From Candidatus Acidiferrum sp. (GTDB taxonomy: Bacteria > Acidobacteriota > Terriglobia > Acidiferrales > UBA7541): 64,000 bases of DNA. Every line of letters starts with the position of its first letter. The stretch's first letter is position 1. The stretch covers positions 4,232 to 68,231 of the forward strand of contig DATFZN010000114.1 of assembly GCA_035314425.1 (NCBI GenBank), written 5' to 3'. Positions 41,004-64,000 of the stretch are shown here, piece by piece. A program made the position numbers and the translations under genes. The notes beneath the pieces are model-generated. The model did not search any database. It was given only the letters and a program-made list of their open reading frames with translations, and had not been told where the DNA came from.

Positions 41004-41009
41004 TGTTTC

Positions 41010-43019: not shown

Positions 43020-43098
43020 TGCGTCACTTCCTCCACTCCGCCAACCGCGCTTCGAGGCCGTGCTTCGCTCATCGGCAGCGCAAAACAAACAAATCTAA

Positions 43099-43407: not shown

Positions 43408-43479
43408 TTTCTTTCTCCATCGAACACATGTCCGCACTTCGGACCTCCTGGGCGAGGGAAAGTCCCCCACCAAGGAAAA

Positions 43480-43496
43480 GGCAAGTGCAGTGCCAA
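43480..43496 (-). promoter_or_regulatory. Sigma-54 (-24/-12) promoter, near consensus
   Basis: The minus strand reads TTGGCACTGCACTTGCC (TGGCAC-N5-TTGC) with correct GG/GC spacing, about 75 nt upstream of ATG 43407. Confidence 0.7.
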
Positions 43497-43794
43497 GTTC
43501 AGGGGGTTTCTGGAGAAAGTCCAAAGAACCTCGGCGGCGGCCGCAAGCCCCTCAGAGGAATGGGGATATGCTTTCGCAAAGAACGGCGCCGGTCTTTTAT
43601 TTCATGCGCCAACGTCTCAGGTACCCGCCGAAACTACGAAATGGATCTCACGCTGAGACAATTCGCTTCAAACAGGGTTAGCCCCAGGTAACGCATCCGC
43701 CGCAGCCCAAGGATGAGTGATTGACTCAGATTGAGATTGCTCAGTAGCTTTGAAGTGTGCAGTCTTAACTTGAGACAGAGAGACCTTACCCCGT

Positions 43795-46122
43795 ATGCGT
43801 GGACGAAAGACTACAACTTCTCGCCGCAGCTCCGCGGTCCGTGGCCGGACCCATTCCGGCCAGGTTGCATCTGATTACGCACAGGAATTAATGAACCTGG
43901 CGGTTGCCGCGGCAAATTCACGGGAATTGCCAGCGTTTCTTGCTGGATTTGCCTCACGCGCGGCCGAAATGCTGGACGCCCAATGGGTCGGGGTCGGCGA
44001 GATTATTGGCAGCCGAGTTGAACTGTATTCGCCGGTGCAGGAATTCCCGGCTAGCCCGGCGGTATGGGACTGGTTGCTGCTAAATATTCCCTGCAAGCGA
44101 GATAGCCTCGAGGTAGTCACGGTTCCGGCAGGCGCCGGCCACTGCGCGTTCTTTCCGATTTATGCCAGCGACGGCGAATTGATGGGCACGCTCTGCCTGC
44201 TGCGGGCTGAACCGAAGTTTTCGGCCGCGCAGGAGCGCCTCTTGACAGCCCTGGCCAGCCATGCGGCGCTTTCCATGGAGAAGGTGCGGCGCTTTTCGCA
44301 GCTGGAGCGCTCGAAGAAGCAATGGGTCGAAGATATTGATGCGATCAGCGACTATATCGTGGTGCACGACCAAAGCTGGAAAATTGTGCGCACCAACAGG
44401 ACATTGGCGACGCATCTCGGCAGGCCACCCGCGGCACTAGTCGGCGAGCCCATGGCCAACCTCCGGAATATCGCAGAAACGGGCAGCGCGCTACCCTGCC
44501 CTTTTTGCAAGAACACCAAGCAAGCACGAGAAGAATATATCGCCACGGCGGAAGGGCGCACATTTTTGGTTTCCACTTCACGAACGCCGGGAGCGGTCGA
44601 AGAAGAAACACGCACGATTCACGTACTGAAGGACATTACCGATCGCCGGGAAGCAGAGCGCCGCTACCGGGAATTATTCGACAGCATTCAAGAAGGATTG
44701 TTTTTTGCCACGCCGGATGGACAATTCTTGGATGTGAATGATGCCATGGTTCGTATGTTAGGTTACGATTCGCGCGAAGAGTTGTTGCGCGCGGACGTTA
44801 GCCCGCACCTTTATCCCACCGTTGCGGCCAAGGATCGGTTCGTGCGCGCGATTGCCGAGCGAGGTGCGCTGCGCAATTACGAAGAGACCCTCCGCCGAAA
44901 AGACGGCAGCCTGCTGCACACCATGCAGAACATTAGCGCGGTGCGAGATGCCCAGGGAAGAGTGGTGCAAACACGGGGATTGATGCTCGATGTGACAGAA
45001 CAAAAAATGTTTCAGTCGCAACTGCAGCGAGAGCGCGACTTTAACCAGAAAATTCTGAATACCACGCAGAGCATGATTCTGGTGTTGGATACGGCGGGAT
45101 TGATCAGCTACGTGAATAAGCGGTGCTACGAAGCGGGATATAAGGAAGAAGAGCTCATCGGTCACCGGCTCGAGAATTGGATCGACTTCTCGCATCGGAT
45201 TGACTTCGAAGCCGCTTTGCAGACCACGGCACTTGGCCACCAGGTAGAAAATTTGGAATTGCGCGTCGCCCGAAGCGATGGATCGATGGGACATTTTTCG
45301 ATCAGCCTCAGCCCTATGCGCGATGAGTCGAAGCAGGTAAACAGCGTTGTCGTGGTAATGACGGACATCACCGACGCAGCTTTGCTGCAGGCAAAACTCG
45401 CCCATTCCGAAAAGATGGCAACAATTGGGCAATTGGTTTCTGGCGTGGCGCATGAAGTGAACAACCCGCTGGCGGCTATCTTAGGATTTACCGATTTGTT
45501 GCTGGAAAACCCGGAGGTGCCAGAAGCCGCGCGAGAAGATCTGCGGATTATTCTGCAGGAAACTCAGCGCACGAAAGAGATTGTCCAGGATCTTTTGAGT
45601 TTCGCGCGCCAGCGTCCGGCACAGCGCGAAGCGGTCCAAATCAACGCCATTCTCCGACAGACAATCAAGCTCCGGAGTTACGATTTTTCGAGCCACGGGG
45701 TGGAGGTGGTGGAGGAATTTGACGAGAGTATTGCTCCAACACTGGGCGACGGACAACAGCTGCAACAAGTCTTTCTCAATATATTGAACAACGCGTACGA
45801 TGCCATACAAGAGTCCGGAAATCACGGACAGATTCGCATACGGACACGCCGGACACAGGATTCGGTGGAGGTGGCCTTTATCGATAATGGCATTGGCCTT
45901 ACCGAGCCGGAACGGATCTTTGATCCATTTTTCACGACCAAGCAGGTAGGAAAAGGCACTGGCCTCGGGCTGAGCATTTGTTACGGCATTGTGCGGGCCC
46001 ACGGCGGAGAAATTCTTTGTTGGAACAACGCCCAAGATTCTGGAAGCACGTTCGTCGTGCGATTGCCGCAAACCTCCGAATCAGCATTGGCAGCTGCTGC
46101 AGCGAAAGAGGCATCGCGATGA
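43795..46122 (+). CDS. Cytoplasmic sensor histidine kinase (GAF + three PAS-like + HisKA + HATPase)
   Basis: No TM segments. H-box VAHEVNNPL, N-box NILNNAYDA and G-boxes DNGIG / KGTGLGLSICYGIV. PAS-like segments begin near residues 185, 290 and 420. Confidence 0.9.
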   Translation: MRGRKTTTSRRSSAVRGRTHSGQVASDYAQELMNLAVAAANSRELPAFLAGFASRAAEMLDAQWVGVGEIIGSRVELYSPVQEFPASPAVWDWLLLNIPCKRDSLEVVTVPAGAGHCAFFPIYASDGELMGTLCLLRAEPKFSAAQERLLTALASHAALSMEKVRRFSQLERSKKQWVEDIDAISDYIVVHDQSWKIVRTNRTLATHLGRPPAALVGEPMANLRNIAETGSALPCPFCKNTKQAREEYIATAEGRTFLVSTSRTPGAVEEETRTIHVLKDITDRREAERRYRELFDSIQEGLFFATPDGQFLDVNDAMVRMLGYDSREELLRADVSPHLYPTVAAKDRFVRAIAERGALRNYEETLRRKDGSLLHTMQNISAVRDAQGRVVQTRGLMLDVTEQKMFQSQLQRERDFNQKILNTTQSMILVLDTAGLISYVNKRCYEAGYKEEELIGHRLENWIDFSHRIDFEAALQTTALGHQVENLELRVARSDGSMGHFSISLSPMRDESKQVNSVVVVMTDITDAALLQAKLAHSEKMATIGQLVSGVAHEVNNPLAAILGFTDLLLENPEVPEAAREDLRIILQETQRTKEIVQDLLSFARQRPAQREAVQINAILRQTIKLRSYDFSSHGVEVVEEFDESIAPTLGDGQQLQQVFLNILNNAYDAIQESGNHGQIRIRTRRTQDSVEVAFIDNGIGLTEPERIFDPFFTTKQVGKGTGLGLSICYGIVRAHGGEILCWNNAQDSGSTFVVRLPQTSESALAAAAAKEASR

Positions 46123-46517
46123 GCGTTCGAACGGAGACGAAAGTCTTGGCGCCTATTCTGCTCATTGAAGATGAGGATTCTGTGCGCGCGTTTGTGCGCT
46201 CGGCGCTCGAGCGTCGTGGATATTCTGTCGTGCAGGCATCATCGGGCACGCAAGGGGTAGAGCAACTGGCCTCGGCACACTATGCCGGGGTGATTTCCGA
46301 CATTCGCATGCCCGGCAAGGTCAACGGCGCGGATATTCATCAATGGATACAAAAGAATCGACCAGAATTAGCGGAGAGAATCATTTTGATCAGTGGCGAT
46401 ACAGCGAATAGCGAAACGCAGTCATTGCTTCGTGGTAGTTCCACACCTTGCATTGAAAAACCGTTTCGTGTTCAACACTTGATTTCTATCGTGGAGAAGA
46501 CATTCGGAAAACCATGA
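46119..46517 (+). CDS. Single-domain response regulator (canonical receiver)
   Basis: Motifs ILLIEDED, VISDIRMP, LISGD and IEKPF. ATGA overlaps with both neighbouring genes. The ORF-track start at 45978 lies inside the kinase gene. Confidence 0.85.
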   Translation: MSVRTETKVLAPILLIEDEDSVRAFVRSALERRGYSVVQASSGTQGVEQLASAHYAGVISDIRMPGKVNGADIHQWIQKNRPELAERIILISGDTANSETQSLLRGSSTPCIEKPFRVQHLISIVEKTFGKP

Positions 46518-47938
46518 GCGACGACCTAAAAACCAAACTTCTGGTAGTGGACGATGAGCAGAGCATCCGTAAGCTGTGCATGACCATCGGAAACTCGTTG
46601 GGCTTTTTATGCCATGAAGCCGAGAGCGCAGAGATTGCTGCCACGCGACTAGAAACCGATCCGCCTGACCTGGTACTGACGGACTTAAAGCTCCCCAATC
46701 AGTCTGGTGTGGAATTGCTGAAACAGATTCGCACTGTTTTGCCTCGGGCCGAAATTGCCATCATGACCGGACACGGTTCGATTGAGTCTGCAGTCGATGC
46801 GATGAAACTCGGCGCATACGACTATATCGAAAAGCCCTTTCGAGTCGAGAAGTTGCGGCTCTTGCTGCAACGCATGGCCGAAAAGGTGCGCTTGGTAAAT
46901 GAAAACGCCTTCTTGCGCGAACGAGTCAACACCGAGGAAAACGTGGATGGGATTATCGGCAGTTCCTCGGCGATGCAAGATGTTCTGCGAATGATTTCGC
47001 GGTTGAAAGACACCCGGACACCCGTCCTGATTTCAGGGGAAAGCGGCACGGGAAAAGAACTGGTTGCACGCGCCATTCACTTCCGCGGAGCCATGGCCCA
47101 GACCCCGTTTGTGGCGGTGGATTGCGGTTCGTTGGTCCCCACACTGATGGAAAGCGAACTTTTTGGTTATGAGAAAGGCGCATTTACCGGTGCCACAAAA
47201 TCTAAATCCGGATTGTTCGCCTCTGCAAACGGCGGAAGCATATTCCTCGATGAAATCGGGGAAATTCCGCTGGAGATGCAGGCAAAACTCCTTCGCGTGT
47301 TGCAGGAGAAAGAGGTGCGGCCGGTTGGTAGCAACGATCGGGTCAGCATCGACGTTCGCGTGATTGCGGCAACCAATCGAGATTTGGAAGCTGCCTATCG
47401 CGACGGAACGTTTCGAAAGGACCTCTATTTCCGATTGAACGTGGTTACCGTTCATTTGCCTCCGCTGCGGGACAGGCGTTCGGATATTCCTGTCCTCGTC
47501 CATTATTTTTTGAATCGCTACGCGCCCGGCGCGCATGTACATGTAACCCCTGCGGCGATGAAGAGCCTGCTGCAATACGACTGGCCAGGCAATGTGCGTG
47601 AACTAGAGAATTGTGTCGCCCGCGCATTGACGCTCGGCGATCAAGAGGTCATCGATGTAAAGGACTTGCCACCTGCCATTCGAGCGGAACAAAGCCTCAC
47701 CCAGAGCCTGGCAGTGGAGGAGGCGAGCTCCCTTTCCACCACGGCGTTGGCGGAGATGGAAAAAATGACTATTTTGCGCGTTTTCGAGCAAGCACACGGA
47801 GACAAAGCACTGGCTGGAAAAATGTTGGGAATCAGCCGTGCCACGCTCTACAGAAAATTAAAGCGATACAATATTCCACCCCGCGGCAGCACGGAACAGA
47901 TTGAAAAAGAGGCGGAAATCCATTCGGTAGAACAATGA
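46514..47938 (+). CDS. Sigma-54-dependent transcriptional activator (NtrC family: REC + AAA+ + Fis-type HTH)
   Basis: Walker A GESGTGKE, the sigma-54 contact loop GAFTGA, and the C-terminal HTH GISRATLYRKLKRY. Confidence 0.95.
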   Translation: MSDDLKTKLLVVDDEQSIRKLCMTIGNSLGFLCHEAESAEIAATRLETDPPDLVLTDLKLPNQSGVELLKQIRTVLPRAEIAIMTGHGSIESAVDAMKLGAYDYIEKPFRVEKLRLLLQRMAEKVRLVNENAFLRERVNTEENVDGIIGSSSAMQDVLRMISRLKDTRTPVLISGESGTGKELVARAIHFRGAMAQTPFVAVDCGSLVPTLMESELFGYEKGAFTGATKSKSGLFASANGGSIFLDEIGEIPLEMQAKLLRVLQEKEVRPVGSNDRVSIDVRVIAATNRDLEAAYRDGTFRKDLYFRLNVVTVHLPPLRDRRSDIPVLVHYFLNRYAPGAHVHVTPAAMKSLLQYDWPGNVRELENCVARALTLGDQEVIDVKDLPPAIRAEQSLTQSLAVEEASSLSTTALAEMEKMTILRVFEQAHGDKALAGKMLGISRATLYRKLKRYNIPPRGSTEQIEKEAEIHSVEQ

Positions 47939-48095
47939 GCCGTCTCACGCGGTAGCGGCCGGGGATCAAAGTTTCAAATTGCAAGTGAGACACAATCGTT
48001 TCAGTGTGAGACTCAGGTCACTAATTAGGCCCGAAGGAAGTTTTTAAGCTCTTTTGTTTCTGTTACATTCCTGAAAATCAGACCAACTCAGATTT

Positions 48096-48112
48096 TGGTT
48101 CTCGGCGTGCAT
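48096..48112 (+). promoter_or_regulatory. Sigma-54-like -24/-12 element (TGGTTCTCGGCGTGCAT)
   Basis: GG (48097-98) and GC (48109-10) are at consensus spacing with T at -14. It lies 73 nt upstream of ATG 48185, which is preceded by GAGGGA. It shares the CGTGCAT -12 box with 50772..50788. Confidence 0.5.
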
Positions 48113-48184: not shown

Positions 48185-48517
48185 ATGTCGCTGATCGCCG
48201 ATGAACGCGAATGCGCAAAACAATTGGCAAAGTTTTTTCCGGACTTGCCTGCAACTCGCTTCCTGGTCCGAGTGCAATCTGCTAGGCCCGGTCGAGAGAA
48301 ACTGCAGGAATCGACGGTAGTCGAATTTGGCATGGGGCAATTCGCAATCTTCACGACATCGCTACCGCTGGAGTTTGATGAACGCATCCGATTGGTTCAG
48401 CACAGTGGGGGGAAGCCGGTGGAAGCGGAAGTGATTGCTTTGCAATATCACGAAGGAATGAAAGCAGTGGCCGTGCGGTTTGTGGAAGGCACCTGGGACT
48501 GGATAATGCAGCCGTGA
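48185..48517 (+). CDS. Hypothetical small protein (beta-rich; faint PilZ-like pattern without c-di-GMP motifs)
   Basis: Good SD. The stop overlaps the next start (GTGA). No recognisable catalytic or binding motif. Confidence 0.6.
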   Translation: MSLIADERECAKQLAKFFPDLPATRFLVRVQSARPGREKLQESTVVEFGMGQFAIFTTSLPLEFDERIRLVQHSGGKPVEAEVIALQYHEGMKAVAVRFVEGTWDWIMQP

Positions 48518-49959
48518 ACAAAATGATAACAACATTAAATTTGCAAGCACCTCAGAAGCCAGATAACTCGCGAAATGCGCAATGGGAAGAAAACCGCTCG
48601 GTTTTTCCCATTTACATCGCGCTGGCCAAGCACCTTCAAATTGAAATTCCGTTTCCGCAAAACAAGCGCGTTTTGCCGGAGAAGGCGGAACTTGAACTGT
48701 TCACTCAGGTTGATACCTGGCTAAATGCCATGGATCAACAAGTGATGGTGCATCAATTGCGCCACCTTCTTCAGATGACTACGCTGAACGCCAGCGAAAG
48801 CGGCTTGCGCGGGCTGATCATGCGACATCTGAAGAAATCCGGCAAGACTCTCGCGGATCGAGACAAGATTGATTTCCTATTGGTTCAATACTTCGCGCTC
48901 TGCGCCCCGGCTAAAATCTTTCACAAGCAAATCGAACTGGTGGACGTGGCGCAGGTCATGAAACCTGTTTTTGGTGAGGTGAGCACAGCGCCGCTGCCGT
49001 GGTGTGAGCCGCTTGAAAAAATGATTCATTCTCTGCGAACCTTCAAGAGCCTGCGCGATATTCTGAAAACCAATTTTATCGAACAAGGGCGGCGGGTAAA
49101 AGAAACCGCAGGCAATATGTTCTACGATCCGAGTGCCATGTTGGCTTTTGTGCAATTCAATTTCCTCTTGCGCCGGACACTTATCGAGTTGATGCACGCA
49201 GATTTGATCTACATCCGATCCGGGATCAATCATCTGGAAACTGCTGGTGCCAAGACCATCGATTGTCAATCCTTTGGATTGACAGCGTCTGAACCGGTTG
49301 CGAAGGTTCGCCAATATGCCGACGAATGGAAGCAGCCATTCCAGAAGGAATACACCGAACGGTCCGTGAATCAGGCTTTCGACAAGCTTCTGGCTCTGCG
49401 CGCGGACATCGAGCGCGCCGTTGAAAAGGTCTTGGGGAAGCCACTTGAGCCAGCTCCTGCGTCCACTTCAGGGGCAAAACTCGAGCCCCATTCGCCAGCA
49501 AAGGCTGCAGAGGTCAAAACGTCTCCGGCGGCAATAATGAATGAATCTGCAGAACCAGAGCTGGACTTCGAATCCTGTATGGAACAGATTTGGGAGCAGC
49601 TTATCTCCGCACCGCCCTCTCGAGGACGTTCCATGACCACTGTAAAGGTGGGAGGCGCGCGAGTGCTGATGTCTTCCTGGGAAGTGACTGCGTTTGTCAG
49701 TGAAGATGGTTCCGCGGCGGAAGATCTACGACGCGCCGTGGTTGCGCGCGCAATGGTCACCGCAGCCACGGAAAAAGCGAAGACTTCACCCACGACGGCC
49801 AATCTCGAGCGCGTACTCCCTATTGCCCGGGTCGAAGTTTCGCGCTTGCAGGAACGCGTGGAACTAGCCAAACAAGCCAAGGACACAGAAGCTGCCGTGA
49901 ATCTGGGCATCAGCACGAAGAGATTGCTGTCCGCTTTAGACGAAGCCGAGAAGCTTTGA
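48514..49959 (+). CDS. Hypothetical 481-aa soluble protein (helical N-domain, Pro/Ala/Ser linker, C-terminal coiled-coil-rich domain)
   Basis: Long uninterrupted ORF, co-directional and translationally coupled. No TM segment, signal peptide or known motif recognised. Confidence 0.7.
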   Translation: MNKMITTLNLQAPQKPDNSRNAQWEENRSVFPIYIALAKHLQIEIPFPQNKRVLPEKAELELFTQVDTWLNAMDQQVMVHQLRHLLQMTTLNASESGLRGLIMRHLKKSGKTLADRDKIDFLLVQYFALCAPAKIFHKQIELVDVAQVMKPVFGEVSTAPLPWCEPLEKMIHSLRTFKSLRDILKTNFIEQGRRVKETAGNMFYDPSAMLAFVQFNFLLRRTLIELMHADLIYIRSGINHLETAGAKTIDCQSFGLTASEPVAKVRQYADEWKQPFQKEYTERSVNQAFDKLLALRADIERAVEKVLGKPLEPAPASTSGAKLEPHSPAKAAEVKTSPAAIMNESAEPELDFESCMEQIWEQLISAPPSRGRSMTTVKVGGARVLMSSWEVTAFVSEDGSAAEDLRRAVVARAMVTAATEKAKTSPTTANLERVLPIARVEVSRLQERVELAKQAKDTEAAVNLGISTKRLLSALDEAEKL

Positions 49960-50007
49960 TTCGCTGCCAAAGAAGCTCATCAAGCGCACGGGATTCGGGA
50001 GCCCATT

Positions 50008-50691
50008 TTGCGAAACACGAGTGTCTTAATTTTGACCGACGATTCCGAGTTTGCCCGGCTGCTCAGCGCTTGTTGGCAGACAGAACGTCAATTGCCTGGC
50101 CTCTCTGTGCTCACCAGCGATTTATGGAAAGGCGGCGAGAATGTTGCCCCAGACCTGATCGTAATCGGCCCACTAAAAGAAGATAAATTCGCGAGCGTGA
50201 TGCGTTCGATCGGCTCGAACACGGCAGTTATTTTTTGCGCTACTTCCGAACACAAGGATTTTGGGCTGCTCCGCAAACGCTACCCCAGGTTACTGCACCT
50301 ACCCCTGCGTGAGGACTGGACCCAGATGATTCTCTTGCTTGCCGGTGAATCGCTAAAGCGTACGGAAGCACTCAAAATTGCGAAGCAAGCGGAACGCAAC
50401 GCCTCGCTGAGCGCCAATCAGGCGACGCTCGGCCGCTACATGATGGATATGAAACGCAATATGAACAACGCGCTGACTTCGCTGCTAGGTAACGCTGAAT
50501 TGTTGTTGCTGGAACCTGGACAACTTTCCGGGCAATCCTTGGCGCAGATAAAGACGATTCACACTATGGCCCTGCGCATCAACGAAATCGTCCAAAGATT
50601 CTCATCGCTCGCCAGTGAAATGCGGGACGCTGAGACGCCTTCTCAGAGTGAGACCGAGGAATCCATCTCGCCGCATTTTACCCCCCGATAG
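50008..50691 (+). CDS. Pseudo-receiver + HisKA/DHp-like domain with Lys in place of the phospho-His; no ATPase domain
   Basis: TTG start preceded by GGGAG. VLILTDDSEF...DLIVIGP is a receiver fold with Gly at the phospho-Asp position. LGRYMMDMKRNMNNALTSLLGNAELLLLE aligns with IGQLVSGVAHEVNNPLAAILGFTDLLLEN of the kinase at 43795, with H replaced by K. Confidence 0.7.
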   Translation: MRNTSVLILTDDSEFARLLSACWQTERQLPGLSVLTSDLWKGGENVAPDLIVIGPLKEDKFASVMRSIGSNTAVIFCATSEHKDFGLLRKRYPRLLHLPLREDWTQMILLLAGESLKRTEALKIAKQAERNASLSANQATLGRYMMDMKRNMNNALTSLLGNAELLLLEPGQLSGQSLAQIKTIHTMALRINEIVQRFSSLASEMRDAETPSQSETEESISPHFTPR

Positions 50692-50771
50692 GGCCAGACA
50701 CCTCCACGATAACTCCCCTGCTTTCAAATACTTAATAGGATTCGACAACAGTTGAGAAAGAGCCGCAAAGC

Positions 50772-50788
50772 TGGCTGTCAACGTGCAT
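50772..50788 (+). promoter_or_regulatory. Sigma-54-like -24/-12 element (TGGCTGTCAACGTGCAT)
   Basis: GG (50773-74) and GC (50785-86) are at consensus spacing, with the same CGTGCAT -12 box as 48096..48112. It lies immediately upstream of the first gene of chemosensory cluster 2. Confidence 0.5.
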
Positions 50789-50797
50789 TTTTCTACT

Positions 50798-51187
50798 ATG
50801 GAGAAGTACGCGGAGCAACTGCACGTGCCCAAAATAGTGCTGATCGTCGATGATTCACCCGCTCAGGTGAAGCTGATTCAAGGGCTTCTCGAGCCCGAAG
50901 GTTATTGCCCAGTGGGCTTGAGTGACCCAAAACGCGTGGAGGAGATGATCACCTCAGAGCGGCCGAGTGTGATTTTGCTCGATGTAGTGATGCCCGAGCG
51001 AAACGGGTTTCAGGTATGCCGGGAATTGAAAAGCAGCAACGACTTCAATTCTATCCCGGTCATCCTGGTCACCTCCAAAGACACAGCAAGCGATCGTTAC
51101 TGGGGAGAGCAGCAGGGTGCCGACGGTTACGTAACAAAACCCTTCACACGGGAAGAATTATTGCGCGCGGTTCGACGGTTTGCGTAA
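50798..51187 (+). CDS. Single-domain response regulator (PilG/PilH position)
   Basis: Motifs VLIVDDS, VILLDVVMP, LVTSK and VTKPF. The start is uncertain. The ORF-track GTG 50783 lies inside the -12 box, and ATG 50798 would be nearly leaderless. GTG 50825 has GGAG 9 nt upstream. Confidence 0.85.
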   Translation: MEKYAEQLHVPKIVLIVDDSPAQVKLIQGLLEPEGYCPVGLSDPKRVEEMITSERPSVILLDVVMPERNGFQVCRELKSSNDFNSIPVILVTSKDTASDRYWGEQQGADGYVTKPFTREELLRAVRRFA

Positions 51188-51205
51188 GAGGCCAGAGGAA
51201 ACGGA

Positions 51206-51736
51206 ATGAACGAAGACTTTCATCTTGTACCGATGCCCGCCGACGCGGAGATGGTCGATCTGCTGGAGGCCCTTGGGCCAATCGCCGAGCGCCCGCCGGA
51301 ATCGCAATATTGCGTTTTTCGCAGCGGTCGGGAACGGTTTTGCTTGCCGGTGTTAGACGTGGAGGAGGTAGTGGAATGGCCGCTGATTACACCCTTGCCA
51401 TTGTCGCCAGCCTATGTCCTGGGAATTTTCAATCTGCGTGGCGCCATCGTTCCGCTGATTGATATCGCGTTGACGGAAGGCCGTAGGACGGGATTGTTGC
51501 CAAAGCACGTGGTGGTCGCTTCGCTTCGCCCGGATGGTCATCATGAGGAAATACGGGTTGCGATCGCAGCGGACGAAGTCGTCGGAACCTACTCCGTGAA
51601 CGAAGAAGAAGATTTGTTGGAGCAAGCGCCGGAAAACGTGCCGCATTGCATTGGGATGTTGCGCCACGAAGACCGGTTGGCGCTGGTTATTGATCTTCGC
51701 CGGCTGTTGGAAGTGTACCCCGGTCCGAGTATTTAA
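51206..51736 (+). CDS. CheW-like coupling protein (PilI position)
   Basis: Motifs ..[19 protein letters not shown].. and [13 protein letters not shown]. Confidence 0.85.
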
Positions 51737-51765
51737 AAGTTTTCGAGAGAGCTTGGGAGGTAGGA

Positions 51766-53214
51766 ATGAAATCGCGACTGAGCACTAACATCTGGACGCT
51801 GGCCATCCTGAACGCCGTCGTATTCTTTGTGGTACTGGGATTGGCATTCAGCGCAGGACGCCAGGCAAACGGCGCATCTATTTTCGATGTCGGGGCTATG
51901 CCCAGCGGAGCGAGCGGAAACTTGATCTTCGCGCTGGTACTGGCCGTGGCCACCAGCATGTTCCTGGCGTGGAGATTAGGAAACGCCATACTCTCCCCAG
52001 TGAATGAGCTCGCCGCGTTCTCCGAACGGCTGGCGGCGGGTGATTCGAAAGCGCGCGCCGATGTCAGCTCAAACGACGAGTTTGGGCATATCGCAGAAAA
52101 CCTGAATCGCGCCGTTGCCCGCGTCTCGAAGGCCGCCAACAACCAGGAAGCCACCGAATCACTGCAGCGCAGCATCACAGATCTGCTTGCCGTCATCAAC
52201 CAGGTCGCCCGCGGAGATCTGACCCTGCGCGGCAAGGTCACCAACGACGCCCTCGGCAACGTTTCCGACTCGATCAACTACATGCTCGAGAATTTCACTA
52301 AGGTGCTAGAACGCGTTCGTAAAGCCGCTATGGAAGTCACCGCCTGCTCGAACAATATCCTCGTGGCTGCCGATCAGATGCAGGCCGGCGCGACGCAACA
52401 GGACCAGGAAATTACCAATACGTCGAGCGCGGTGGAGGAGCTTACCGTCTCGATGAAACAAGTGTCCAACAACGCGGAAGCCAGCGCAGAAGCGGCTCGC
52501 CGTGCACTCGATGCCGCTGAACAGGGTAATCGCGCCGTGCGCGACACGCTCGATGGCATGCAGCGAATTCGTTCTTCCGTGCAGGCGACCGCGAAGAAGA
52601 TCAAGTCTCTCGGAGACCGTTCGCTGGAAATCTCCGAAATCATCAACGTGATCAACGACATCACCGAACAGACCAACCTGCTGGCACTAAACGCCGCAAT
52701 TGAAGCAGCGCGCGCCGGTGAGGCAGGCCGTGGCTTCGCGGTGGTCGCCGACGAAGTTCGTAAATTGGCGGAGCACTCACGCAGCGCAACGAAAGATATC
52801 GCGGCACTGATTAAGGCGATTCAGGCCGAGACCAACGAAGCCGTGGTGGTCATGGAGGAAGGCACCAAGGAAGTGGAATCCGGAGCAACCCTCGCTGATC
52901 AGGCGGGACGCGCGCTCGACGCAATTTCGAGCGTGGTTCGCCAGTCGGCGGAACTTGTGCAAGAGATTTCACTCGCTTCCAAACAGCAGGTTCGCGGTAC
53001 AGAAGGGGTCGCGCACGCCATGCAGATCATTTCCAACATTACGCGCCAGACCTCTCAGGGTACACGCGGCACGGTGGCCACGGTAAGCCAACTGGTCAAA
53101 CTCTCTGACCAGCTAAACGAAGCGCTGGCTCAATTCCGGGCAAACTCAAAGACCAACAGTAGCTCGGCCATGGGAGATTCGCAGCATCCCGTCCCAGCGG
53201 GCGCTTTGCGGTAA
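51766..53214 (+). CDS. Methyl-accepting chemotaxis protein with minimal (about 20-aa) periplasmic loop + HAMP (PilJ position)
   Basis: Hairpin [36 protein letters not shown]. Two TM helices (residues about 9-30 and 52-72). Confidence 0.9.
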
Positions 53215-53274
53215 GGCAAATAGTGTTTCGGCGTTTCGGTGAGATCGAACGATCGAGGCAAGAGCGGGACGGTT

Positions 53275-54159
53275 ATGAGCGATCGCCACGGGGCGGGACA
53301 CAGTTTGACCGAACACGAACTGAGCGAGATCCGCATGCTGATCGAAGAGCGGACAGGCATACGTTTCGACGAGTCGCGCGAGAGATTTTTCTCCACGCGA
53401 GTCCGTGAACATCTGCACGCAAACGGTTTTCACCACGGCAGCGAGTTGGTCAGGGCGATCCGCAAGAGCAATGTGGAATATGAGGCACTGCTTGAACGGT
53501 TGCTAACCCAGGAAACATCGTTCTTCCGCTATCCCGCGGTGTTCGATGCGTTTGAGAAAAGAGTTTTGCCGGAACTGCACGCCAAGAACTTCTGGAAGAG
53601 CCCGCGGACGCTTCGGGTGTGGAGCGCTGGGTGTTCCACCGGCGAGGAGCCCTACTCCATCGCGATCACCATACTCGACACCCTTTCTTTGGCGGATGCG
53701 TGGAACGTGGAAATCCTGGCGACCGATGTGGGCCGTCACGCGCTGAAACATGCAGAACGCGGAGTGTATTCTGGCCGCAGTATTTCCAGTGTGAAAGCTT
53801 CGCAGCTTGCCGCACATTTCACAGTGGCAAAAGATGGGCATCAAGTGAAGCCTCGCGTCCGCAAGTTGGTTAGTTTCGCACAGATGAACTTGGCGTCACC
53901 CGTTTATTTGGGTCGCATGGACTTGATTTTCTGCATGAATGTTCTTATTTACTTTTCGGAAGCGCGGTGTGCCGCACTCGTACAGCGGTTTTATGAAGCG
54001 CTGGAGCCCGGTGGATATCTTTTTCTCGGGCATTCTGAGTCCATTTCGAAGATGACGGTGAAATTTCAGGCCATCGTTTTGGGTGATTGCATCTTGTATC
54101 GCAAGCCATTGGCGGATGAAATGCAAAAGCACGAATTGGTGGCGGAGGGACGCGGGTGA
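53275..54159 (+). CDS. CheR-type methyltransferase (PilK position)
   Basis: Motifs ETSFFRY and VWSAGCSTGEEPYS. The start is ATG 53275 or ORF-track GTG 53239. Confidence 0.9.
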   Translation: MSDRHGAGHSLTEHELSEIRMLIEERTGIRFDESRERFFSTRVREHLHANGFHHGSELVRAIRKSNVEYEALLERLLTQETSFFRYPAVFDAFEKRVLPELHAKNFWKSPRTLRVWSAGCSTGEEPYSIAITILDTLSLADAWNVEILATDVGRHALKHAERGVYSGRSISSVKASQLAAHFTVAKDGHQVKPRVRKLVSFAQMNLASPVYLGRMDLIFCMNVLIYFSEARCAALVQRFYEALEPGGYLFLGHSESISKMTVKFQAIVLGDCILYRKPLADEMQKHELVAEGRG

Positions 54160-57155
54160 GCGGTCCGGACCAAGAAGCCGTCGAGCTTTTCCTCCAGGAA
54201 GCATCCGAGCACCTGCAGTATCTGCGGGAATACGTCAGCGTGCTTCAAGACGCTTCGCCACGTCACGAAGATGTGGAGCGCCTGTACATCGCCGCACACA
54301 CGCTAAAGGGCACTTCTGCCAGTTATGGCTTTCCGCGCTTTTCTGAAGTTGCCGGCAAGCTTGCGCACATTTTCCAATATGCGCTGAATGCTCCGCTCGG
54401 CGACGATCTACACGGCCCGCTAACCGAGTTCCTTTCCGACGGCATCTCCCTGCTCGAAACCAGCTTGCTCGAGATTAGTGACACCGGTCAGGAAAATATC
54501 GAGGACGCAACCGCGTTTAAGGAACGCTATCGTTTTGCGTTTCCCGTCGAACCACCGCCACTCAATTTGGCGCCGCTCGAACCTCGTGTGGAAGAGCCGC
54601 AAGAGGCACAGGATAACTCACCATTTGAGCCGTCGGAGGCCATTCACACGGGGTTGACCGGTTCCTATTTCGATGCCCTGCCTGCCGACGACGAAGTCCC
54701 GGGCGAGATTATCGAGTTTTTCCAGCCCGAGGCAGAAGAGCATTTGCAAATCGTCAGCGACTGTCTGCTTTCGCTTGAAGGCAATAACAACCCTGAAGAT
54801 ATCAATCGGTTGTTTAGGGCGATCCACACGGTAAAGGGCTCGGCGGCCCAGGTTGGACTGCGGCGGCTGGGCGCGATCGCACATCGCGTGGAAGACTTGA
54901 TCGGACGCCTGCGTGATCAAGAAATTCAGCCTTCCCCGGCGGTCGTGGATCTATGCCTTGCGTCAGTCGACGTGCTGAAGAAGACCTTGCATCGCGAGTG
55001 GAAAGACGAATCGGAAATGCGCGCGGGGGTCGATTCCCTTCTGGGCCGTATTGCGACCTTCGCGCCCGAAGAGTCCGAGGAAGGGCCCGGGCAGCCTGCG
55101 CCGACAGAGCAAAACGAGCTCGCAAGCGAAGAGGCGGCAGTGGCCGTCGAGGAGCCGCGCGCGAATAAACCTGCTACGACTCGGGCGCAGAAACAAGCCG
55201 TTGCGGCAAAATCGGTGCGCATCGCGCTTGGTCGCCTGGATCGCATGATGAACACAGTCGGCGAACTGGTAATCAATCGCACGAAAATGGTCGGCCGGGT
55301 CGCAGAACTGGAAAAGTTGATCGACACCCTGAGCTTTTCGAAGGAACGATTGCAAGGCAAAGTCAGCGAGTTTCAGGACAAGTACGAATTTAACCGGATT
55401 CGAGCAATCCAACCCGGTACGCCCTGGGCAAATCGGCAGACTCAGCAGATGTTGACTAGCGCAGCGGCAGGCGATGGCTCCATCTTCAGTGATTTTGGTG
55501 AACTGGAGATGGACCGCTACGATGATTTTAATATCTTGTCGCGTTCGATGACGGAAATTTCCGCCGACGTGAACGAAGTCCTTGCGCAACTTGAAGGATT
55601 CATCGGGAGAGTGGAAGGCGATATCGACGAATTCACCAAGCTTGCACATCACTTACAGGACGAGATTACCGCCGCACGTATGGTGCCCATTGGTACTCTC
55701 TATTCGCTGCTGTCGCGCACGGTTCGAGATGCAGCCAAATCAGCCAAAAAACAAGTCGAGATGGATCTCTCGGGCAGCGAGACGGAACTCGACAATAACA
55801 TCATTCAGCAAATCTCTGATCCGCTGGTGCACTTGGTACGTAATTCCGTTGCGCACGGCATTGAACCAACCGAAGATCGTGCGCGCAACGGCAAGCCCGA
55901 ACAGGGCAAGATTCTGCTTCGTGCCTATCATCGCGGCAATCACATTTACATCGAAGTCGAGGATGATGGTCGCGGAATCGATTACGAGCGCGTCAAGCAT
56001 AGTGCAATTGAATCCGGATTGGTTTCACCGGAAACCGCTGGCCGTTTAACGGAGCGCGACCTCCGCGAAATGCTTTTCCATCCGGGTTTTTCCACCGCTT
56101 CCGTCAAGACTGAATTGGCCGGTCGGGGAGTCGGACTCGACGTCGTTCGATCCAACCTCAACGCGCTAAACGGTGAAATTGAAGTTCAGAGTGTGGCAAA
56201 TCAAGGAACGAAGTTTACCCTAAAGGTTCCACTGACACTTATTATTTCCCCGGCTTTGTTCGTGCGTTGCGGTTCGAATCACTTTGCGATTCCGCTCGCC
56301 GTCGTGGAAGAGATTCGTCGTATCCGATCCGACGAAATCGAGGATGTTGGCGGAAAGCTGCTGACAAAAGTTCGCGACGTAGTTACGGAAGTGGTGCGGT
56401 TGGATTCTTATCTTGGTTTGCCTCCCCTCGAGCCAATGAATGGATATTTCCGCATGGTCGTGGCCAACGCGGGAACACGGCAGGTTGGCGTCGTCGTTGA
56501 GGAAGTGATCGGCAAAGACGAAATCGTGATCAAGAGCCTTGGCGAATATCTGCGCAGAATCAAATTGTTCCCAGGCACGACCATCGCACCTGACGGCAGC
56601 TTGATTCTGTTACTCGATCTCAATCGCATGGTGGCGACCGAACCGAATGAGCGTCGCGCAGTACAAGCCAGTGCCAGCGCAGCTCGCGTATTTGCCCCGG
56701 GCTCCGAAGCCATCGCTCAAGGCACAATTCCTGTGGACGCGATCGATCGGGTTGACCAGGAACGCGTCGTCGTCATCGTGGACGATTCTATCAGCGTGCG
56801 CAAATTTGTGGCCCGGATGCTGGAAAAGAATGGCTATCGTGTGAAGCTTGCGGCCGATGGATTGGAAGCCGCTGAGCTTATCACCCAGCAGGGATGCCAT
56901 TTGGTCATTACCGACCTCGAAATGCCGCGCATGACCGGTTATGAATTGATGGCCCAATTGCGGCAGAACCCGATCACCAGAAGAATTCCGGTCATGGTAG
57001 TCACTTCACGAGCCGGCGCAAAACACCGTGAGCGCGCGCTCAAGGAAGGCGCGACTTCATTCCTGACAAAGCCAGTGCAGGAAGACCAACTGCTGTTCGC
57101 AGTGGAACAACTGATTGGGACGGAGGCGGCACGGCCAGTCGTGCCAGTTGGATAG
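54156..57155 (+). CDS. Hybrid CheA (ChpA-like): two Hpt domains + dimerisation + HATPase + CheW + C-terminal receiver
   Basis: Hpt1 AAHTLKGTSA and Hpt2 AIHTVKGSAA; HLVRNSVAHGIE, DDGRGID and GRGVGLDVV; a CheW-like domain; and a receiver (VVIVDDS, LVITDLEMP, TKP). 999 aa. Confidence 0.95.
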   Translation: MSGPDQEAVELFLQEASEHLQYLREYVSVLQDASPRHEDVERLYIAAHTLKGTSASYGFPRFSEVAGKLAHIFQYALNAPLGDDLHGPLTEFLSDGISLLETSLLEISDTGQENIEDATAFKERYRFAFPVEPPPLNLAPLEPRVEEPQEAQDNSPFEPSEAIHTGLTGSYFDALPADDEVPGEIIEFFQPEAEEHLQIVSDCLLSLEGNNNPEDINRLFRAIHTVKGSAAQVGLRRLGAIAHRVEDLIGRLRDQEIQPSPAVVDLCLASVDVLKKTLHREWKDESEMRAGVDSLLGRIATFAPEESEEGPGQPAPTEQNELASEEAAVAVEEPRANKPATTRAQKQAVAAKSVRIALGRLDRMMNTVGELVINRTKMVGRVAELEKLIDTLSFSKERLQGKVSEFQDKYEFNRIRAIQPGTPWANRQTQQMLTSAAAGDGSIFSDFGELEMDRYDDFNILSRSMTEISADVNEVLAQLEGFIGRVEGDIDEFTKLAHHLQDEITAARMVPIGTLYSLLSRTVRDAAKSAKKQVEMDLSGSETELDNNIIQQISDPLVHLVRNSVAHGIEPTEDRARNGKPEQGKILLRAYHRGNHIYIEVEDDGRGIDYERVKHSAIESGLVSPETAGRLTERDLREMLFHPGFSTASVKTELAGRGVGLDVVRSNLNALNGEIEVQSVANQGTKFTLKVPLTLIISPALFVRCGSNHFAIPLAVVEEIRRIRSDEIEDVGGKLLTKVRDVVTEVVRLDSYLGLPPLEPMNGYFRMVVANAGTRQVGVVVEEVIGKDEIVIKSLGEYLRRIKLFPGTTIAPDGSLILLLDLNRMVATEPNERRAVQASASAARVFAPGSEAIAQGTIPVDAIDRVDQERVVVIVDDSISVRKFVARMLEKNGYRVKLAADGLEAAELITQQGCHLVITDLEMPRMTGYELMAQLRQNPITRRIPVMVVTSRAGAKHRERALKEGATSFLTKPVQEDQLLFAVEQLIGTEAARPVVPVG

Positions 57156-57162
57156 ACGAGCC

Positions 57163-58302
57163 ATGACCAGTAGCGCACAAAAGAAGTTCCGAGTGCTCGT
57201 CGTGGACGATTCCGCTTTCATGCGGAAAGTTCTCGAGTCTATTTTCAATTCAGACGACCAATTGCAGGTAGTCGGCCACGCCAAGGATGGCCGCGAAGCG
57301 ATCACGCTCTCGGAATCCCTTAAACCTGATGTCATCACCATGGACATCAATATGCCGCATGTCGACGGGCTGCAGGCCACAGCGCATATCATGACGAACA
57401 ACCCGCGGCCGATTGTGGTGGTTAGCTCAGAAACCCGCGAAGGAGCCTTCAGCGCTCTGAAGGCATTGGAACTTGGCGCAATCGAGTTTGTGACCAAGCC
57501 AACCAGCGGCATTGATCTGGACATGCAGAGTATTAAAGAGGATTTGCTGCGTAAAGTTCGGATGGCTGCGAAAGTTCGGGTCGTGCGAACAGCATCACGT
57601 CAGGCAAGCACGATACAGTCTCGAACTCTGCCCGCAACCTCAACACCCGCTCAGGCAGAGCCCCTGGCTGCACCTTCGCGAACCATGAGCGTTGCGACTG
57701 ATCTTCGCTTCCCGGTTGTGGTGCTCGGTGCATCAACTGGAGGTCCTGCAACAATCATGCGCATGGCGCCCGGTTTTACGCGCGATTTTCCGGCGGCAGT
57801 CATCCTCGTTCAACACATGCCAGCAGCATTTACTACCCAATATGCTGTGCAACTTGCAGAGTTCACCAACATCCGTGTGAAAGAAGCGGAAAATGGTGAA
57901 GCGGTTGGGCCCGGTACTCTCTATATTTGTCCCGGTGGGCAGCATCTCCGCGTTTCGCAAACGGGACGCATTCAGCTCGACGCAACAACCGGGCGAATCG
58001 AAGGATATCTACCCAACATCGATGTGACCCTGGAATCTGTGGCAAGTTTTGCCGGTCCGATGGGCATCGGCGTAATCCTGACCGGGATGGGGAGTGATGG
58101 CGCTCGCGGCGCACGGCTAATTAAGTCTGCCGGTGGGATTGTTTTCGCCCAGGACGAAGCGACTTCCGTAATTTTCGGTATGCCAGCAGAAGCGATTAAG
58201 ACCGGTGCAGTCGAACAAGTATTGGGAATTGACGACCTGTATCCCGCGATTGAAAAGCGAGTTCTCAGCCTCAGCCGCGCGATGCCAGCAGGAGTGCTCT
58301 GA
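57163..58302 (+). CDS. CheB-type methylesterase (REC + methylesterase; ChpB position)
   Basis: Motifs VLVVDDS, DVITMDINMP, GASTGGP, LVQHMP and GMGSDG. The start is at MTSSAQKK (57163). Confidence 0.95.
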   Translation: MTSSAQKKFRVLVVDDSAFMRKVLESIFNSDDQLQVVGHAKDGREAITLSESLKPDVITMDINMPHVDGLQATAHIMTNNPRPIVVVSSETREGAFSALKALELGAIEFVTKPTSGIDLDMQSIKEDLLRKVRMAAKVRVVRTASRQASTIQSRTLPATSTPAQAEPLAAPSRTMSVATDLRFPVVVLGASTGGPATIMRMAPGFTRDFPAAVILVQHMPAAFTTQYAVQLAEFTNIRVKEAENGEAVGPGTLYICPGGQHLRVSQTGRIQLDATTGRIEGYLPNIDVTLESVASFAGPMGIGVILTGMGSDGARGARLIKSAGGIVFAQDEATSVIFGMPAEAIKTGAVEQVLGIDDLYPAIEKRVLSLSRAMPAGVL

Positions 58303-62927: not shown

Positions 62928-64000
62928 TCAGTAGCCGCCTCCCGATTCAAGTCTCGCTCCCAGCATTTCGCGGGCAGCACGTAGAAGCGCCGACCTGCTA
63001 AACGGTTTAGTCAACAGGCGAACGCCAGGATCGGCGTCGGCCATCTCCGTTGCTGCATGTTCGCTATAGCCTGACATGAAAATGACCCGAACGTTCGGTT
63101 GTTCGTGCTGCAGATTCACGGCCAATTCCTGGCCGGTCATTCCTGGCATCACCATATCGGTTACCAACAATTCGATTTTCCCGGCGTTTTGACGCGCGAG
63201 TTCGATGGCTTCCCTGCCATTTTTCGCTTCGATCACCTTGTAACCGCCCGATTCAAGAAATTGTCTGGCGATTTCTCGCACGTCGGCCTCATCTTCCGTG
63301 AGCAACACAGTTTCCGTGCCACTCGGAATTTCCGCAGTTGGCTTGGGAACTCCGACTTGCTCCTCGGCCTGATCTACGCGGGGCAAGTAAATCTTGAAGC
63401 ACGTGCCCTTCCCGAGTTCACTGTAAACCCAGATGAAGCCACCGCTTTGTTTGACGATCCCGTAAACCGTGGCCAATCCTAACCCAGTGCCTTTTCCTTT
63501 TTCCTTGGTAGTAAAGAACGGTTCGAAAATGTGCGCCTGCGTCTCCGCATCCATGCCCGTTCCGCTGTCGGAAACAGTAAGTTGTACGTACTTTCCTGGC
63601 TTCATCAATGGATGACTTGACGTGTAGCCATGATCCAGCTCCGCGTTGGCAGTTTCGATCAAAAGCTTTCCGCCGTTGGTCATGGCGTCACGCGCGTTCA
63701 CGGCGAGATTCATGATGACTTGTTCCATCTGGCTGGCATCGGCACGAATCGCTCCGAGTCTTTCCGAAGCGCATATCGAAAGATCAATATCTTCCCCAAT
63801 CAACCGCGGCAGGAGCTTCCCCATTTCGTCGACGATCGAATTCAGGTTGATAATCTGCGGCTGCAACACTTGCATGCGACTAAACGCCAGCAGTTGCCGC
63901 GTGAGTGAAGCGGCACGGTCCGCGGAGCTGTCAATCTGCTGTATTTTCCGGCTTATACTATCTGTCGGCGATAATACATTCAGCAGCAGTTCGGTGTGGC
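62928..64000 (-). CDS. Hybrid sensor histidine kinase, C-terminal part (HisKA end, HATPase, receiver); the 5' end lies beyond the window
   Basis: The minus-strand frame stays open past the ORF-track ATG (63875) to nt 64000 and encodes ...ADRAASLTRQLLAFSRMQVLQPQ, the end of a DHp domain. This is followed by NLAVNARDA, DSGTGMD, GKGTGLGLATVYGIV and a receiver (VLLTEDE, LLVTDMVMP, TKPF). Confidence 0.85.
   Translation of the reverse strand, partial: HTELLLNVLSPTDSISRKIQQIDSSADRAASLTRQLLAFSRMQVLQPQIINLNSIVDEMGKLLPRLIGEDIDLSICASERLGAIRADASQMEQVIMNLAVNARDAMTNGGKLLIETANAELDHGYTSSHPLMKPGKYVQLTVSDSGTGMDAETQAHIFEPFFTTKEKGKGTGLGLATVYGIVKQSGGFIWVYSELGKGTCFKIYLPRVDQAEEQVGVPKPTAEIPSGTETVLLTEDEADVREIARQFLESGGYKVIEAKNGREAIELARQNAGKIELLVTDMVMPGMTGQELAVNLQHEQPNVRVIFMSGYSEHAATEMADADPGVRLLTKPFSRSALLRAAREMLGARLESGGGY

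Follow-up and report, generated by a model that had tools for sequence, protein, structure and literature searches.

A minimal pseudo-receiver–DHp protein conserved in a che-like operon of Acidobacteriota, and its possible action on a receiver of its own cluster

Among described systems, the closest to the protein considered here are the dimerisation and histidine phosphotransfer (DHp) domains of bifunctional HisKA kinases. In CrdS and HK853, among others, the acidic residue directly after the phospho-acceptor His (position H+1) is needed only for the kinase reaction, and the Asn or Thr at H+4 only for the phosphatase reaction (PMC3510030). Loss of the His itself had a modest effect on the phosphatase activity of CrdS (Willett and Kirby, PMC3510030): the half-life of phosphorylated CrdA (CrdA~P) was 53.5 min without CrdS and 0.7 min with the wild-type protein, and 2.6, 0.4 and 47.6 min with the H371A, E372A and N375A mutants, respectively (PMC3510030). 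A review also concludes that the His is not essential for HisKA phosphatase activity, and puts the share of HisKA domains without it at only 0.9% (PMC12632262). Further, a passage of PMC7005713, citing Zhu et al. 2000 and Liu et al. 2017, states that EnvZ and HK853 keep phosphatase activity without their catalytic and ATP-binding (CA) domains. Here, we describe a gene that is a small relic of a two-component sensor kinase. It lies on a 64,000-nucleotide stretch of DNA from Candidatus Acidiferrum sp. (the window), which corresponds to positions 4,232 to 68,231 of the forward strand of contig DATFZN010000114.1 in NCBI GenBank assembly GCA_035314425.1.

We are highly confident that the product of this gene is a pseudo-receiver joined by one continuous helix to a HisKA-type DHp hairpin, with no ATPase domain, and that it belongs to the family delineated below. 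For its function, our leading but still tentative interpretation is that the DHp dimer acts, independently of His, on a receiver of its own gene cluster, likely as a dedicated phosphatase. What has been lost and what has been retained both bear on this interpretation. The ATPase domain is gone, an acidic residue at H+1 is rare and the His has been lost repeatedly, while the Asn at H+4 is kept in 80 of 80 syntenic orthologues (the best 80 of at least 578 relatives in species-representative genomes, on which our synteny, codon and tree counts are based). This pattern fits a protein that has specialised in one half of what a bifunctional kinase does, namely the phosphatase reaction or at least receiver docking. 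The gene and its parts are as follows.

50008..50691, plus strand: open reading frame of the pseudo-receiver–DHp protein, 227 aa, TTG start, stop codon included
49997..50001, plus strand: Shine-Dalgarno-like GGGAG, 6 nt 5' of the TTG start, read from the sequence
50008..50316, plus strand: pseudo-receiver, residues 1–103 (CheY-like fold in the AlphaFold2 model, Foldseek, hhalign register)
50167..50169, plus strand: Gly54 codon at the phospho-Asp position, motif D49-L-I-V-I-G54-P55, Gly in 80 of 80 orthologues
50317..50427, plus strand: connector, residues 104–140, in which receiver helix alpha5 runs unbroken into DHp helix 1 (a single helix, 104–168, in the AlphaFold2 model)
50428..50634, plus strand: HisKA-type DHp hairpin, residues 141–209 (Pfam HisKA, AlphaFold2, BLASTP)
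50455..50457, plus strand: Arg150 codon CGC at the position of the phospho-acceptor His, one transition from CAC
50464..50469, plus strand: Asn153-Asn154 (H+3, H+4), invariant in 80 of 80 orthologues, H+4 being the HisKA phosphatase residue (PMC3510030)
50635..50688, plus strand: low-confidence acidic tail (pLDDT 61–67) with the motif E-x-x-S-Q-x-E-T-E (E209, S212, Q213, T216)

An AlphaFold2 model of the single chain, built from a 90-sequence family alignment, is confident (mean pLDDT 89.5). It consists of a CheY-like fold, a 65-residue helix (104–168), a short loop, a second helix (175–209) and an 18-residue tail, with the two DHp helices modelled at a pLDDT of about 90. Ala recurs at connector positions 121, 125, 128, 132 and 139, which is consistent with a coiled coil, and by analogy the protein presumably forms a dimer. 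Pfam finds no HATPase_c match in the 227 residues, only 18 of which follow the hairpin. Further, the best 150 of 202 cluster representatives, from an exhaustive search at 50% identity (E ≤ 1e-10), are all at most 272 aa long, so the missing ATPase domain is a property of the family. An earlier interpretation drawn from the letters and reading frames of the window (the sequence-only reading) had described an open reading frame at these coordinates encoding a pseudo-receiver and a DHp domain without its acceptor His or an ATPase domain. This anatomy is borne out for the present copy in every part, the last by Pfam, by the position of the protein's end and by the shortness of the family members.

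The Pfam HisKA profile (PF00512) matches residues 147–202 at 22.9 bits, against a gathering threshold of 26.9 bits (E 9e-5), and matches 80 of 90 family members at E ≤ 0.01, with a best E-value of 6.9e-9. An NCBIfam search of the window protein returned nothing meaningful, and a search of PDB sequences, whether with the family profile or the DHp by itself, yielded nothing but designed proteins and noise. BLASTP aligns the hairpin with the DHp of the histidine kinase encoded at 43795 (E 3e-5, 30% identity over 81 residues), pairing A552-H553-E554-V-N-N-P-L of the kinase with K149-R150-N151-M-N-N-A-L. The His is therefore absent from this copy, as the sequence-only reading had held, but its version of the substitution, HE replaced by KR, was one residue out of register. 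Under BLASTP, His is replaced by Arg150, not by Lys, and the acidic H+1 residue by Asn151; Lys149 is the conserved Arg or Lys that precedes the His across the family. The shift of register brings no His to position 150 of this protein.

Around this position the hairpin hardly varies. Residues 139–170 and 180–204 are nearly invariant across the 80 orthologues, in His and Pro clades alike, and the invariant DHp residues include G142, N153, N154, A155, L156, T157, S158, G161, N162 and L165–L168. The family consensus reads R-[H/P]-[S/N/G]-x-N-N-A-L-T-S-x-L-G-N-A-E-L-L-L-L, in which position 150 is the sole clean switch within the DHp core. At H+1 the 80 syntenic orthologues have Ser (57), Asn (19), Gly (2) or Thr (2), and neither Asp nor Glu. 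Among 95 full-length representatives, Asp or Glu occurs at H+1 in about seven, Asn153 is present in 84 and Asn154 in 88.

As judged from sequence searches, the protein belongs to a large uncharacterised family that is conserved across Acidobacteriota, of which we found no description in the literature searched. A protein search recovered 5836 clusters at 90% identity (E ≤ 1e-3). The best 120 of these, which were examined, all comprise proteins of about 227 aa from Candidatus Acidiferrum/Acidoferrum that are 71–100% identical to the window protein and are labelled as 'signal transduction histidine kinase' at most, or as 'hypothetical'. The best 80 relatives in species-representative genomes are all found in metagenome-assembled genomes (MAGs), nearly all of them labelled Acidobacteriota.

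Variation at the phospho-acceptor position within this family is striking. Position 150 is His in 119 of the 120 closest homologues, and Arg only in the window's own cluster. In the 80 syntenic loci it is His (50) or Pro (30), and among the 95 representatives it is His in 79, Pro in 8 and otherwise Ser, Asn, Arg, Leu, Glu or Thr. On a neighbour-joining tree of the orthologues, the Pro forms make up one clade of 28 and two further tips (L045 and L046) nested among His forms; the Arg form, confined to the window lineage, is likewise nested between His forms. His thus appears to have been replaced by Pro about three separate times, and lost about four independent times if Arg is counted. The His codons are CAC or CAT and the window codon is CGC. 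The Pro codons are diverse (CCG 17, CCC 11, CCA 1, CCT 1), suggesting that Pro itself is maintained by selection. When the gene is compared with its nearest His-bearing orthologue, the ratio of non-synonymous to synonymous substitution rates (dN/dS) is 0.07 over the full length and 0.02 within the DHp, the value for pairs of His-bearing orthologues being 0.05. By this measure the window gene is under strong purifying selection, and with a whole-gene ratio of 0.07 a pseudogene was rejected. An identical Arg-bearing protein occurs on contigs from three separate JGI metagenome samples besides the window's own record, one of these contigs differing from the window by a single nucleotide within the gene, and the same Arg is present in cluster members from ENA and from one SRA run. 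A sequencing error at Arg150 is consequently ruled out. H185 in helix 2 was considered as an alternative acceptor and rejected: it is conserved in the 80 orthologues, but among the 95 representatives that position is His in 53 and Arg in 29.

The term 'dead DHp', as applied in the sequence-only reading, thus suits the window lineage and the Pro clades but not most orthologues, in which the His is retained. Because relatives have lost the phospho-His several times, the protein probably acts without being phosphorylated, and its conserved job is probably independent of His phosphorylation.

The N-terminal domain is recognised by its fold. The AlphaFold2 model has five strand/helix units (beta1 5–9, beta2 31–35, beta3 50–53, beta4 73–78, beta5 95–99), with helix alpha2 shrunk to one turn. 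Foldseek matches it in the PDB to AmiR (the best match), LvrB (which has a REC-DHp-CA arrangement), EutV, WspR, RssB and dozens of receiver domains, at target-normalised TM-scores of 0.6–0.75. The Response_reg profile (PF00072) finds no match in the window protein nor in any of 90 family members, so the identification as a receiver rests on fold rather than sequence. Of the two profile searches that the sequence-only reading had in mind, HisKA and Response_reg, one therefore gave a sub-threshold match and the other none. A profile–profile alignment (hhalign) against the seven true receivers of the window is weak (E 0.002, probability 14%); in its register, D11 and D12 form the acidic pair, G54 falls on the invariant phospho-Asp and P55 on the Pro of the 'MP' motif. 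The acidic pair after beta1 is present (L9-T10-D11-D12), with D11 in 80 of 80 orthologues, and the residue at the Gly54 position among the 95 representatives is Gly in 69, Ala in 11, Asp in 7 and Glu in 3. No beta5 Lys was found, the window protein having L98-P99-L100 and the family Pro or Arg at position 99. The LTDD pair and the Gly in place of the phospho-Asp (DLIVIGP), both picked out in the sequence-only reading, agree with sequence, fold and register. With no Asp, no Lys and no profile match, the modelled domain is best described as a pseudo-receiver, not a true receiver.

The genomic setting of the gene is also conserved. It is the third gene of a che-like operon, directly downstream of a module of kinase, response regulator and activator genes, with the following neighbours.

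43795..46122, plus strand: GAF/PAS histidine kinase (Pfam, synteny), whose DHp is the nearest homologue in the window (BLASTP)
46119..46517, plus strand: single-domain response regulator between kinase and activator (Pfam, synteny)
46514..47938, plus strand: NtrC-type sigma-54 activator (REC-AAA+-HTH), candidate substrate and operon regulator
47942..48012, plus strand: GTCTCAC / GTGAGAC repeats (47942, 47985, 48006), candidate activator binding sites
48096..48111, plus strand: sigma-54-type -24/-12 element TGGTTC-TCGGC-GTGCA, upstream of the operon's first gene
48185..48517, plus strand: u110, unknown 110-aa protein, the operon's first gene (synteny)
48514..49959, plus strand: u481, unknown 481-aa protein, its start overlapping the u110 stop (synteny)
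50783..51187, plus strand: CheY-like single-domain response regulator (Pfam), directly downstream and adjacent in 79 of 80 loci, candidate substrate
51206..58302, plus strand: Che core of CheW, methyl-accepting chemotaxis protein (MCP), CheR, hybrid CheA and CheB (Pfam, synteny)

Searches with the window neighbours (tblastn) found the genes arranged identically, and on one strand, in essentially all of the best 80 loci: PAS/GAF kinase, single-domain response regulator, NtrC-type activator, u110, u481, the pseudo-receiver–DHp gene, CheY-like regulator, CheW, MCP, CheR, hybrid CheA and CheB. This synteny holds while the identity of the pseudo-receiver–DHp protein drops from 88% to 43%. A minority of the 80 loci gave no qualifying kinase match in tblastn. 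Members at 28–36% identity still adjoin the activator and/or CheW or a single-domain response regulator, and the activator itself adjoins family members even at 28–32% identity. In two such distant members (L084 and L085), CheW rather than CheY lies directly downstream. Both u110 and u481 precede the gene in all 80 syntenic loci and match nothing in Pfam, NCBIfam or PDB sequence searches. In the u481 protein many Trp, Arg and Pro residues are invariant, and the middle is variable and of low complexity; in distant family members u481 is swapped for other unknown proteins or absent. The hybrid CheA of the operon has two Hpt domains and a C-terminal receiver, and Pfam detects no CheX, CheC or CheZ in the cluster (48185-60929).

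Two further observations concern these loci. One MAG (MFD02134.bin.3.246) holds two complete copies of the cluster on two contigs (L005 and L006), with pseudo-receiver–DHp proteins at 81% and 80% identity, reflecting either a real duplication or a mixed bin. In the Pro clade (L054–L083), the upstream kinase match starts about 0.7 kb closer to the gene (around -5.5 kb, compared with around -6.2 kb), and several loci give no match for the single-domain response regulator. His and Pro clades may therefore have different sensor modules.

Control of the operon was approached by comparing, across 79 loci, the intergenic stretch that separates the activator gene from u110. An element of the form TGG[CT]NN-N5-[GT]TGCA is present in 79 of 79, at a comparable position and with fixed spacing, while the sequence of the spacer varies. 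A scan of the window for the sigma-54 consensus (≤ 2 mismatches) performed no better than chance, so the promoter is recognised only through its conservation across loci. Farther upstream, the repeat core TGAGAC(G) occurs in 75 of the 79 regions. On this comparative evidence the operon is very likely sigma-54 dependent, and the control by sigma-54 and an enhancer-binding protein suspected in the sequence-only reading is supported by the conserved element and by the activator gene directly upstream. The distance from the u481 stop (49959) to the start of the pseudo-receiver–DHp gene (50008) is 48 nt, and about 30–65 nt in the 28 loci in which u481 was called. With the gene so close behind u481 in a conserved sigma-54-type operon, its role as a built-in feedback element, also part of that reading, is plausible.

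Which receiver the protein might act upon can be narrowed by comparing interaction surfaces. At the specificity positions H+7, +8, +11, +12 and +15, the protein has T/S/G/N/L and the neighbouring kinase A/A/G/F/L. These residues of the protein are invariant in the 80 orthologues, and three of the five differ from those of the kinase at 43795. Position +4 of receiver helix alpha1 is an unusual polar residue in the adjacent CheY-like regulator (Gln in 45 and Glu in 31 of 79), Ile in the activator and Val in the single-domain response regulator, and the kinase, with Phe at H+12, pairs it with this Ile or Val. The polar residue of the CheY-like regulator would suit the Asn at H+12 of the pseudo-receiver–DHp protein. 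The receiver of the activator, for its part, is conserved more strongly than any other in the cluster and its alpha1 is invariant; the activator is also the neighbour that persists in the most distant family members. Covariation across the 80 orthologues gave no partner receiver, because the DHp specificity positions do not vary. The adjacent CheY-like regulator and the activator receiver are thus the two leading candidate substrates suggested by these comparisons.

We speculate that the DHp face would dock a phosphorylated receiver of the cluster, either that of the adjacent CheY-like regulator or that of the sigma-54 activator. Its dephosphorylation would be sped by the invariant Asn154 at H+4, as in the phosphatase mode of bifunctional HisKA proteins, and the pseudo-receiver would serve as a regulatory input through the shared helix. 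The C-terminal tail motif, which is kept in both His and Pro clades, could be a docking peptide comparable to the CheY-binding C-terminal peptide of CheZ. Since the gene would be expressed from an activator-dependent promoter, the result would be negative feedback or signal termination, and the protein would stand in for the CheX or CheZ missing from its che cluster. In its boldest form, which we consider possible but doubtful, this proposal would make the family an unrecognised class of dedicated phosphatases that act on phospho-receivers without needing a His and consist of a bare DHp under pseudo-receiver input; the class would be convergent with CheZ and CheX and would close a feedback loop between the che array and the sigma-54 activator in Acidobacteria. 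If so, the natural series of His, Pro and Arg forms would show that DHp phosphatase chemistry needs only the amide at H+4.

Several considerations weigh against a phosphatase. Nucleotide-bound CA domains stimulate the phosphatase activity of HK853 and EnvZ (PMC7005713), and there is no CA domain here. In PleC, loss of the His (H610A) abolishes phosphatase activity (PMC3510030), and Pro or Arg at position 150 could, by analogy, do likewise. Instead of being catalytic, the invariant Asn-Asn pair could have a structural role or belong to a binding surface. The CheW found next to the gene in the distant members L084 and L085 means that an adjacent CheY is not a universal neighbour, and the retention of His in 50 of 50 His-clade members implies that it matters for something there.

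Of the alternatives, we give most weight to a non-catalytic binder, although we think it rather unlikely. Here the DHp would bind the receiver of the activator, CheY or CheA one-to-one, without faster dephosphorylation, and would sequester that receiver, scaffold it, or connect the Che array with the sigma-54 activator. In favour of this, the DHp surface stays the same regardless of the residue at position 150, and a Pro at the catalytic position is easier to square with binding than with catalysis. Down to 28–32% identity, the family is invariably accompanied by the activator and the Che core, alpha1 of the activator receiver is conserved to a degree that matches the DHp, and the conserved tail motif could be a docking peptide. 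What speaks for catalysis instead is that a retained Asn at H+4 together with a nearly absent acidic H+1 distinguishes phosphatase from kinase function in HisKA (PMC3510030), and a pure binder would have no obvious need of this pattern. The sequence-only reading had favoured another route, in which a dead DHp heterodimerises with the kinase at 43795, or docks CheA, and so inhibits it; we regard this as improbable. Inhibition of this kind has a precedent in RetS, which inhibits GacS by DHp heterodimerisation. The DHp and its counterpart in the neighbouring kinase are homologous (BLASTP E 3e-5, with 30% identity across 81 residues), most of the 80 loci have the kinase in synteny, and the gene is controlled by an activator presumably fed by the same kinase, such that inhibition would close a feedback loop. 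However, the two DHps are no more alike than generic HisKA domains, three of five alpha1 specificity positions differ, and the long Ala-rich connector helix of the protein suggests a stable homodimer. Titration also leaves the invariant Asn154 unexplained. The combination of invariant specificity positions unlike those of the kinase, an invariant Asn at H+4 and a rare acidic H+1 favours action on a receiver over titration of the kinase.

Less probable still is a phosphotransferase in the manner of Spo0B or ChpT, in which the DHp His of His-bearing orthologues would relay phosphate between receivers, for example from the CheA receiver to the activator, and the Arg copy and the Pro clades would be dead or repurposed. 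This would account for a His kept by all but one of the 120 closest homologues and by every one of the 50 His-clade members, and the hybrid CheA and several receivers of the cluster offer the raw material for a phosphorelay. It is difficult to reconcile with about four independent losses of the His that left synteny, the DHp surface and the phospho-Asp sites of the neighbouring regulators unchanged, or with the strong purifying selection on the Arg copy; moreover, in Spo0B and ChpT the His is invariant and a CA-like domain is retained. Finally, the gene could be decaying, having become functionless in the window lineage after the His was lost. The Arg unique to that lineage is what this would explain, but the reading frame is intact, an identical protein recurs in several independent assemblies, dN/dS is 0.07 overall and 0.02 in the DHp, and all other invariant residues are kept, making decay exceedingly unlikely. 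Among these readings, action of the DHp on a receiver, likely as a phosphatase, remains the one we prefer.

The window contains further signalling genes around this operon. A second, canonical che cluster (35340-43088, minus strand) encodes CheX, CheY, CheB, CheA, CheR, CheW and an MCP; its CheA has a weak, sub-threshold P2 match. Here, unlike in the plus-strand cluster, a CheX (35340-35843) adjoins CheY. A PilZ-domain protein (34190-35131) lies beside the CheX end of the canonical cluster, and a protein with a TonB C-terminal domain (43099-43524) lies between the two che clusters. Downstream of the Che core, 59200-60102 encodes a REC-DUF4388 protein whose receiver, judged by eye, is apparently another pseudo-receiver, with a 'LIDSN' acidic pair, Ser at the phospho-Asp position ('IVCSSS') and 'DRH' in place of 'TKP' at beta5. 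It is followed by a 276-aa protein (60099-60929) whose receiver is canonical and whose C-terminal half, about 140 aa, has no Pfam match, and, at the end of the che-like cluster, by a 156-aa open reading frame without a Pfam match (60995-61465). A 315-aa open reading frame at 62928..63875 on the minus strand, with a CA domain and a receiver but no DHp, was considered as a split kinase and rejected, since the frame is open to the window end. The frame (62928-64000, minus strand) reads through DHp helix 2, and thus belongs to an ordinary hybrid kinase (HATPase_c and receiver) cut by the end of the window.

Pseudo-kinases and pseudo-receivers are common and their workings mostly obscure; here, both are fused in one minimal protein that forms a fixed part of a widespread operon of soil Acidobacteria. 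Evolution has performed a natural mutagenesis at its acceptor site, with His, Pro or Arg in place and the rest unchanged. If the protein is a phosphatase, it would show how far a DHp can be pared down, to a signal terminator that stands alone, and would explain how a che-like system manages without CheZ, CheX or CheC. If it is instead a binder or a kinase titrator, it would offer a compact model for DHp-mediated regulation. Either way, it gives a hint of the wiring between a chemosensory array and a sigma-54 activator, in a phylum whose signalling has hardly been studied genetically.

Comparison with known systems places the protein between several of them. With the bifunctional HisKA DHps (Myxococcus xanthus CrdS, Escherichia coli EnvZ and Thermotoga maritima HK853), it shares the homologous hairpin and the Asn at H+4; in these proteins the His is helpful but not essential (PMC3510030, PMC12632262), and CA-less fragments of EnvZ and HK853 still dephosphorylate their regulators, according to the same passage of PMC7005713. 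It differs in standing alone at 227 aa, with no sensor, no CA domain and a pseudo-receiver as input, and its family differs in the near absence of an acidic H+1, in Ala for the H+5 Pro and in the change of His to Arg or Pro. CheS3 of the Rhodospirillum centenum che3 cluster (REC1-REC2(pseudo)-PAS-HWE) likewise has receiver-type domains upstream of a kinase core, one of them without Asp, and its cluster is also che-like, with a hybrid CheA and a single-domain CheY (PMC3868531). However, CheS3 functions as a kinase: it has a phosphorylatable REC1, a PAS domain, a His and a CA domain, and it phosphorylates CheY3 (PMC3868531). In contrast to this HWE kinase, the pseudo-receiver–DHp protein is of the HisKA class and lacks both a phospho-Asp and a CA domain, and its His varies or is missing. 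The M. xanthus Che3/CrdS-CrdA system resembles the present locus in coupling a che-like system to a kinase and an NtrC-type sigma-54 activator, and dephosphorylation of the activator is its control point (PMC3147164). There, CheA3 destabilises phosphorylated CrdA, and Che3 has neither a CheY nor a pseudo-receiver–DHp protein.

Resemblances to other helical regulators are more partial. Spo0B and ChpT are also DHp-like four-helix bundles that lack kinase activity and dock receivers, but the present family has lost its His about four times and carries no domain after the hairpin, and so falls outside that group. The CheZ dimer, a bundle of helices, works by inserting an amide side chain and holds CheY on a tether formed by a C-terminal peptide. 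The protein has no Pfam match to CheX, CheC or CheZ, yet is perhaps analogous to them in design, with a helical bundle, an invariant Asn and a conserved tail, and it adjoins CheY, as CheX does in the other che cluster of the window. AmiR, KaiA and FrzS also combine an Asp-less CheY-like domain with a long dimerising helix, but their outputs (ANTAR, a KaiC-binding bundle and a coiled coil, respectively) are unrelated to a HisKA DHp. With no CA domain, no His and no acidic H+1, the protein is not a functional kinase. It is closer in kind to the pseudo-kinases DivL, RetS and RocA, which are likewise kinase-derived, without phosphoryl chemistry and dependent on DHp-mediated signalling, but which keep their sensor domains and a CA or pseudo-CA domain. 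To our knowledge, none of these three is a minimal pseudo-receiver–DHp protein or a component of a che operon. The protein described here is both: a minimal pseudo-receiver–DHp pseudo-kinase that is a fixed component of a che-like operon.

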